Positions 58,180 to 59,598 of a stretch of 64,000 nt of DNA are shown here, piece after piece. Location of the stretch: the sequence record PQ249397; one strand, 5' to 3'. The notes under the pieces are model-generated. The model was given only the letters and a program-made list of their open reading frames with translations. It was not told the DNA's origin and made no database searches. Both the position numbers and the translations under genes were made by a program. This DNA is from Escherichia phage Pu-Krd-SF3. Within the stretch, counting starts at the first letter, position 1. Each line of letters starts with the position of its first letter.

Positions 58180-59598
58180 ATGACTTTTACAGTTGATATA
58201 ACTCCTAAAACACCGACAGGGGTTATTGATGAAACCAAGCAGTTTACTGCTGCACCCAGTGGTCAAACTGAAGGTGGAACTATTACCTATGCTTGGAGCG
58301 TAGATAATGTTCCACAAGATGGAGCTGAAGCAACTTTTAATTACGTATTAAAGGGACCTGCCGGTCAAAAGACTATTAAAGTAGTTGCAACAAATACAGT
58401 TCCAGAAGCTGAAGCTGAAACAGCAGAAGCTACTACAACTATCACAGTTCAAAATAAGACACAAACGACCACCTTAGCTGTAACTCCTGATAGTCCTCCA
58501 GCGGGAGTAATCGGAACCCCAGTTCAATTTACTGCTGCCTTAGCTTCGCAGCCGCCAGGAGCATCTGCTACATATAAATGGTATGTTGACGGTTCTCAAG
58601 TTATTGGAGAAACTAATGCTACGTTCAATTACACTCCAACTACAAGTGGAGTAAAAATAATTAAATGCGTAGCCCAAGTAACTGCAGAAAATTACAATGA
58701 AAAGGAAGTTACTTCGAATGAAGTATCTTTGACTGTTAACAAGAAAACACAAACGACTACCCTAGCTGTAACTCCTGCTAATCCTGCTGCCGGAGTAATC
58801 GGAACAGCTGTTCAATTTACAGCCGCTTTAGTTTCTCAACCTGATGGAGCATCTGCTACGTATCAGTGGTATGTAGATGATTCACAAATTAGTGAAGCAA
58901 CTTCCGCTACATTTAGCTATACTCCTACTGCAGTTGGAGTTAAAAAAATTAAATGCGTAGCCCAAGTAACAGCAACGGATTATGACGCAAAAACAGTTAC
59001 TTCTAATGAAGTATCATTAACGGTTAATAAGAAGACAATGAATCCACAGGTTACATTGACTCCTCCTTCTATTAACGTTCAACAAGATGCTTCGGCTACA
59101 TTTACAGCTAATGTTACTGGTGCACCCGAACCGGCACAAATTACTTATTCATGGAAGAAAGATTCTTCTCCAGTAGAAGGATCAACTAATGTATATACCG
59201 TTGATACTTCATCTGTTGGAAGTCAAACTATTGAAGTGACTGCCGTCGTTACTGCAGATGACTATGATAGCAAAACTATTACAGCAGAAGGTCAAGTTCA
59301 AGTGACTGATAAAGTTGCTCCAGAACCAGAAGGTGAATTACCTTATGTTCATCCTCTTCCACACCGTAGCTCAGCTTACATCTGGTGCGGTTGGTGGGTT
59401 ATGGATGAAATCCAAAAAATGACTGAAGAAGGTAAAGATTGGAAAACTGAAGATCCAGATAGTAAATACTACCTGCATCGTTACACTCTTCAGAAGATGA
59501 TGAAAGACTATCCAGAAGTTGATGTCCAAGAATCGCGCAATGGATACATCATTCATAAAACTGCTTTAGAAACTGGTATCATCTATACCTATCCATAA
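58180..59598 (+). CDS. hoc: Hoc highly immunogenic outer capsid protein (four Ig-like domains)
   Basis: 472 aa; four ~95-aa Thr/Val-rich Ig-like segments plus a C-terminal capsid-binding-like domain; position as in T4. Confidence 0.75.
   Translation: MTFTVDITPKTPTGVIDETKQFTAAPSGQTEGGTITYAWSVDNVPQDGAEATFNYVLKGPAGQKTIKVVATNTVPEAEAETAEATTTITVQNKTQTTTLAVTPDSPPAGVIGTPVQFTAALASQPPGASATYKWYVDGSQVIGETNATFNYTPTTSGVKIIKCVAQVTAENYNEKEVTSNEVSLTVNKKTQTTTLAVTPANPAAGVIGTAVQFTAALVSQPDGASATYQWYVDDSQISEATSATFSYTPTAVGVKKIKCVAQVTATDYDAKTVTSNEVSLTVNKKTMNPQVTLTPPSINVQQDASATFTANVTGAPEPAQITYSWKKDSSPVEGSTNVYTVDTSSVGSQTIEVTAVVTADDYDSKTITAEGQVQVTDKVAPEPEGELPYVHPLPHRSSAYIWCGWWVMDEIQKMTEEGKDWKTEDPDSKYYLHRYTLQKMMKDYPEVDVQESRNGYIIHKTALETGIIYTYP
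58453..59028 (+). repeat. tandem duplication of an Ig-like domain module within hoc (2 x ~288 bp)
   Basis: adjacent 96-aa segments KTQTTTLAVTP...EVSLTVNK are ~77% identical at protein level (74 of 96 by my count). Confidence 0.7.

Follow-up and report, generated by a model that had tools for sequence, protein, structure and literature searches.

The window analysed here, a stretch of 64,000 nt from Escherichia phage Pu-Krd-SF3 (PQ249397), shares its entire sequence and numbering with the opening 64 kb of PQ759884.1, the record of Escherichia phage Pu-Krd-SF4 (host E. coli B). It contains hoc, the gene of the head outer capsid (decoration) protein; the same ORF is already annotated in PQ759884.1 as 'Hoc-like head decoration protein' (58180..59598, 100% match), and T4 Hoc (5vf3_Z) matches its product at E 3.9e-248. 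The gene is preceded by inh (57490..58170) and followed, from position 59687, by homologues of 24.3, 24.2 and rnlB. This arrangement is also present in 20 related phage records, and T4 carries the same gene at the same locus. A terminator-like hairpin, AGGGGCTTCGGCCCCT, lies directly behind the stop codon; T4 likewise has a hairpin after hoc, and a putative transcriptional terminator is annotated at the equivalent place in the T4 record X14869. A sigma-70 promoter scan gave fewer sites in the real sequence than in shuffles. Two ORFs on the minus strand within hoc (58540..58752 and 59371..59556) were not counted as genes, being by-products of the coding strand. The features of the locus are compiled in Table 1.

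Table 1. Features of the hoc locus of phage Pu-Krd-SF3 (positions in the 64,000-nt window)
Feature	Position	Strand	Remarks
hoc coding sequence, head outer capsid (decoration) protein	58180..59598	+	ORF, 472 aa plus stop
Ig-like domain 1 (aa 1-91)	58180..58452	+	82/91 aa identical to T4 domain 1; all-beta, pLDDT about 88-95 (AlphaFold2)
Domain-2 unit A (aa 92-187), unit type 4	58453..58740	+	PKD match at residues 99-171; 81/96 aa as in T4 domain 2
Putative crossover site GTAACTCCT, 9-nt shared stretch	58480..58488	+	Switch from 'domain 1|first unit' to 'second unit' context, relative to three-unit genes
NEVSLT motif, first copy (aa 180-185)	58717..58734	+	Holds S183/L184/T185 of the PNJ-9 report
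Domain-2 unit B (aa 188-283), unit type 2	58741..59028	+	PKD_4 and PKD_3 matches; 81/96 aa as in T4 domain 2
NEVSLT motif, second copy (aa 276-281)	59005..59022	+	Same motif in unit B
Last Ig-like domain (aa 284-379), corresponding to T4 domain 3	59029..59316	+	Ig_3 and I-set matches at 289-373; 84/96 aa identical to T4
Linker and C-terminal capsid-binding domain (aa 380-472)	59317..59595	+	92/93 aa identical to T4
Terminator-like hairpin AGGGGCTTCGGCCCCT with T-rich tail	59603..59628	+	GC-rich hairpin 59603..59618; directly 3' of the hoc stop

An initial sequence-only reading had described this Hoc as longer than that of T4 (472 versus 376 aa) by one Ig-like domain, and both statements hold, the lengths according to the ORF and the T4 structure (PDB 5vf3, chain Z). 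Residues 1-169 of the Pu-Krd-SF3 protein align to T4 residues 1-169 and residues 195-472 to T4 residues 99-376, so that the excess amounts to precisely a single further copy of T4 domain 2. T4 Hoc has a single domain-2 unit and three Ig-like domains in its 376 aa and is not itself a four-domain protein; Pu-Krd-SF3 has two units, here called A and B, and four Ig-like domains. Outside the units, the two phages agree in 90% of the residues of D1, 88% of those of D3 and 99% of those of the capsid-binding domain. The homology of the additional, PKD-type domain to T4 domain 2 is seen in the alignment, in Pfam (PKD, Ig_3 and I-set matches above the cut-offs), in the AlphaFold2 model and with Foldseek. 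The model, built from an alignment of 30 two-unit homologues, consists of four all-beta domains over residues 1-378 with a pLDDT of about 90. Its best PDB matches in Foldseek are strings of four or five Ig domains (Sidekick, Dscam, ICAM-5; E about 1e-12), with whole-chain TM-scores that are low (0.16-0.31) because the inter-domain angles are flexible; from these matches we take the multi-Ig nature of the chain only.

The C-terminal domain was modelled poorly from a shallow alignment (pLDDT 34-59), and we therefore relied on the solved T4 domain, to which it is 99% identical. The T4 residues reported to contact gp23 (Y293, H295, H299, R300, W309, W310, D313 and E355-G359; PMC10385173) correspond to Y389, H391, H395, R396, W405, W406, D409 and E451-G455 in Pu-Krd-SF3 Hoc, all of which are invariant or nearly so across the 30 two-unit Hocs. 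[quoted passage not shown] On the virion, the protein would form a monomeric fibre, its C-terminal domain sitting at the centre of each major-capsid hexamer and its four Ig-like domains pointing outward, compared with three in T4. The T4 fibre measures 18 nm (PMC10385173); by analogy, that of Pu-Krd-SF3 would be roughly 4 nm longer.

The two domain-2 units make up a tandem repeat, which Tandem Repeats Finder reported as one array (58459..59037, period 288, 2.0 copies, 78% matches, 0% indels, score 717). The limits 58453-59028, proposed from the sequence alone, coincide exactly with the codon boundaries of both units. Units A and B share 224 of 288 bases (77.8%), differ at the remaining 64 and are aligned without indels; the longest identical run is 24 nt. 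When the sequence is compared with itself shifted by 288 nt, identity is 0.7-0.87 within the repeat; beyond its limits most windows lie at about 0.13-0.47 and a few reach 0.6. At the protein level, 73 of 96 residues agree between segments 92-187 and 188-283, and 74 of 96, the count given originally, in registers 93-95. Identity of the units to the first and last Ig-like domains is only 31-42%, in agreement with the claim that they are closer to each other than to these. The repeat as such was therefore correctly observed, far beyond chance.

Comparing Hoc lengths among T4-like phages, as had been recommended, revealed genes with one to four domain-2 units. We sampled hoc in even steps down a ranking of 656 matching phage records; among the 50 rows at full coverage, 23 had a gene of about 1419 bp (two units) and 27 one of about 1131 bp (one unit). 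In the best 120 protein clusters, lengths of 376 aa (79 clusters), 472 aa (29) and 568 aa (7) were found. The two-unit hoc is an ordinary variant that sequenced relatives carry about as often as the T4 form. Carriers of two units include Yersinia phages PST and phiD1, wV7, HP3, AndreasVesalius (Bas42) and ECO4. The 472-aa Hocs (PhiZZ30, phiD1, HP3, AndreasVesalius/Bas42, ECO4, G2540, Pu-Krd-SF1 and, with 474 aa, wV7) have the same five-domain layout as the Pu-Krd-SF3 protein, to which they are 84-90% identical, and the units inside each gene are 74-79% identical in DNA. Three units (568 aa) are present in YUEEL01, ESh16, A6-6 and slur03/slur08, and four in Shigella phage Sfk20 (MW341595.1; 613-2607 in our locus L045), whose hoc spans 1995 bp and encodes 664 aa. 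The Sfk20 units are 76-81% identical to one another, and its Hoc is the longest of the Tequatrovirus type among those examined. An IMG/VR search yielded 21 loci with about four close relatives, of little use for a phylogeny of units, and named phage records were used instead.

For a classification of the units we clustered 160 of them, from 121 Hoc proteins (the query and those 115 of the 120 best hits whose lengths fit whole units), by average linkage of protein identity. The resulting types are blurred by recombination, and type 3 looks chimeric. The architectures observed were 1, 4, 3, 1-4, 1-5, 1-2, 1-3, 1-6, 1-4-5, 1-4-2, 1-2-5, 4-5 and 4-2, with 1-4 being the commonest two-unit form. Most 472-aa clusters start with a type-1 unit, whereas Pu-Krd-SF3 is 4-2 without type 1 and is alone in this among the 121 clustered proteins. 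Sfk20, typed outside the clustering by comparison with the Pu-Krd-SF3 units and type consensus sequences, reads 1-4-2-5. All multi-unit architectures composed of types 1, 4, 2 and 5 read as 1-4-2-5 with units left out and the order kept, and no reversed unit order occurred among the architectures of the 121 clustered proteins. Since the clusters share ancestry, the 35 architectures that respect this order do not represent 35 independent events. In a neighbour-joining tree of the DNA units, the first-position units of other phages formed one clade; both units of Pu-Krd-SF3 fell into the other, together with units from second and third positions and with some of the single ones, that of T4 included.

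The 4-2 pair as such is found elsewhere. Sfk20, A6-6 and slur03 contain a contiguous 4-2 pair as in Pu-Krd-SF3, with 91-95% DNA identity; in A6-6, slur03/slur08, YUEEL01, ESh16 and Sfk20 an extra type-1 unit stands in front, and Sfk20 has a type-5 unit behind as well. The closest counterparts come from a three-unit hoc on an NCBI contig (P0003, locus L042), the second unit of which is 95.5% identical in nucleotide sequence to unit A and the third 97.6% identical to unit B. Unit A is 94% identical to the second unit of Sfk20 and A6-6, and unit B 93-94% to their third; taken over P0001 (another three-unit gene), A6-6 and Sfk20, the corresponding units are 93-95% identical to A and B. The 90 nt across the A|B junction differ at a single base from the UB|UC junction of P0001, indicating that this junction was inherited and not newly made.

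The start of unit A points to how the 4-2 allele may have arisen. Its first ~27-36 nt are a sequence that usually adjoins domain 1. Up to GCTGTAACTCCT, Pu-Krd-SF3 matches the domain 1|first-unit junction of P0001 without mismatch; from GTAACTCCT on, it is unit B of P0001 that is matched, with 2 mismatches in the next 36 nt versus 10 for unit A of P0001. Most simply, the 4-2 gene would be a 1-4-2 gene lacking its first unit, with exactly 288 bp lost by a crossover in the 9-nt shared stretch near the unit start, a direction of change that we infer from the comparison with three-unit genes. In-register recombination of a one-unit type-4 allele with a 1-4-2 allele would leave the identical pattern, and so would the building of three-unit genes from a 4-2 parent.

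In more general terms, we put forward as an evenly balanced proposition that Tequatrovirus Hoc has, as its domain 2, old and diverged cassettes in a fixed order (1-4-2-5, with one to four units per gene), an array which is trimmed, extended and mosaicked by homologous recombination, the 4-2 gene being a deletion derivative of 1-4-2. Out-of-register and in-register exchange between conserved framework stretches would change the number of units and create mosaics. Junctions compared in single-unit alleles show that in other alleles the change from one unit type to another lies elsewhere, which indicates that exchange between units is recurrent. Units A and B differ more often in predicted loops (15 of 39 positions) than in strands (8 of 57; Fisher p = 0.008), although over all 160 units loop versus strand variability was not significant (p = 0.09). 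A concentration of differences in loops would fit frameworks kept conserved for folding as well as for recombination. If the proposed array is true, recombination reshuffles from phage to phage both how long the fibre is and which loops it exposes, and the 376-aa Hoc of T4 is a reduced form.

The gene as a whole is mosaic. Within hoc (58180-59598), domain 1 is 99.6% identical in nucleotide sequence to Pu-Krd-SF1 and 99.3% to Sfk20, the last domain is 99.6% identical to PhiZZ6, P0003 has the closest units, and for domain 3 no fetched sequence exceeds 94%. The contig with P0003, the closest three-unit hoc, carries between uvsW and inh a 205-aa ORF (L042 144-761, minus strand) with a faint match to SegE, a GIY-YIG homing endonuclease; at this place the Pu-Krd-SF3 window has only a 50-nt gap (57440-57489). 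A mobile endonuclease adjoining hoc could stimulate local recombination and mosaicism.

As a shorter route to the 4-2 gene, type-4 and type-2 single-unit alleles might have been joined in a co-infection by one out-of-register crossover, in which case the 22% difference between the units would reflect allelic divergence instead of time since duplication. Single-unit domain-2 alleles are indeed 75-98% identical in DNA (mean 84%), much like the units within the gene, and T4-type phages recombine heavily, with varied breakpoints between unit types. However, the 79 single-unit clusters comprise only types 1, 4 and 3 and no type-2 single, and none of the clustered architectures has the reversed order. 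In addition, the common 4|2 junction in P0001 and the contiguous 4-2 pairs in the three- and four-unit genes of A6-6, slur03, Sfk20 and P0003 imply that the pair predates Pu-Krd-SF3. We thus regard such a single crossover as improbable.

Repeats are a classic source of misassembly, and it could be argued that the 472-aa gene is wrong, the true gene having one unit (spuriously expanded) or three (units 1 and 4 collapsed); the exact 4-2 architecture is unique among the 121 clustered proteins, and the putative junction lies in a short shared stretch. Yet the units have 64 differences in 288 bases and no identical run above 24, so that ordinary reads bridge them and tell them apart. The reading frame is uninterrupted, purifying selection acts on either unit, an analogous 4-5 gene is present in an independent assembly (P0021, OK570375.1), and genes with two, three and four units have been assembled independently many times. 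We consider an assembly artefact unlikely and give it very little weight.

The sequence-only reading had explained the repeat as a recent in-frame tandem duplication of 288 bp. The description of adjacent, in-frame 288-bp units without indels stands; recency does not. Between units A and B, dS is 0.81, a value near saturation, and dN/dS 0.18; this dS exceeds every value obtained for the flanking domains of Pu-Krd-SF3 against 23 related phages (maxima of 0.45 for D1, 0.53 for D3 and 0.35 for D4). Moreover, both copies are nearer to units in other phages than to each other, and the high dS excludes that these counterparts are horizontal copies acquired after a local duplication in Pu-Krd-SF3. 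Near-identical units within one gene were not seen in any relative, with none above 84% (aa) among 36 multi-unit proteins or above 81% (nt) among 18 multi-unit genes. Although the copies are far more alike than the other Ig-like domains, it is next to inconceivable that they were duplicated recently in the phage's own lineage, given their dS, the 93-98% identical counterparts at matching positions of three- and four-unit genes, the common A|B junction, the two-unit length in nearly half of the sampled records and the shortness of their identical runs. By the measure of sequence divergence, a recent duplication is refuted and the two domains are old, long-diverged copies. Very probably, then, this is a normal hoc, of one of the longer forms that are common in Tequatrovirus (T4-like) phages, with copies representing two old unit types and not a fresh duplicate.

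A variable number of Ig-like domains in Hoc is already published, as a gene of the Pu-Krd-SF3 type is already deposited as Hoc-like. Hoc homologues have one to ten Ig-like domains (Fokine et al. 2023, PMC10385173), the ten being found in Serratia phage Muldoon (PMC10385173). As in Pu-Krd-SF3, the published variants keep the C-terminal anchor and vary in Ig-like domain number; they concern the loss of domain 3 or much more divergent proteins, whereas here it is the copy number of domain 2 that differs in a T4-like Hoc. In the literature searched, we found neither a description of an ordered 1-4-2-5 array, only statements that domain numbers and arrangements differ, nor one of the 376/472/568/664-aa series beyond general remarks on variable domain number. 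The ordered cassette picture and the place of the Pu-Krd-SF3 allele in it are new here, as a modest by-product; the two-unit gene itself matters little as a discovery, being annotated, common and of a kind with published variation.

Hoc serves as a display platform for T4 vaccines and vectors and is a proposed mucus-adherence factor. The natural variants with one to four units are for this reason a ready-made test series for the effect of fibre length and domain valency on adherence, aggregation and immunogenicity. They also caution against taking the 376-aa Hoc of T4 as the family norm.

Published work links the Ig-like domains of Hoc to the binding of mucin and fucose, with binding to mucin glycans demonstrated only for the Hocs of T4, PNJ-6 and PNJ-9. 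Which domain of Hoc binds mucin is a matter on which publications disagree. In PNJ-6 Hoc, D1 (E29, G33) binds mucin and D2 and D3 did not (PMC11150434); in PNJ-9 Hoc, residues S183, L184 and T185 of D2 were reported to be essential for MUC2 binding (PMC11853027); and for T4 Hoc, a mutation in D3 is cited. The NEVSLT motif that holds the three PNJ-9 residues is present twice in Pu-Krd-SF3, because the domain is present twice. The corresponding columns are invariant or nearly so in the 30 two-unit Hocs, conservation of a beta-strand motif being no proof of binding. By analogy, the extra domain would add a second copy of a glycan-binding-type surface and may raise reach or valency, and the suggestion made from the sequence, of binding tuned by domain number, is plausible and agrees with published work.

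Some relatives showed irregular hoc records. In Yersinia phage PST (KF208315.1; 601-2020 in our locus L025) the hoc match covers 1420 bp, but the frame from the normal start stops after 16 codons and the record annotates only a truncated CDS (1091-2020), pointing to a frameshift or sequencing error in a two-unit hoc. The hoc match of Shigella phage KNP5 (KX452698.1, 109965-112036; 193.6-kb record) extends over 2072 bp in three pieces and could reflect an unusually long gene, an insertion or an assembly problem. In phage T2 (e.g. NC_054931.1, 105474-106590), the hoc region of 1117 bp is annotated as two or three CDS, suggesting a disrupted hoc.
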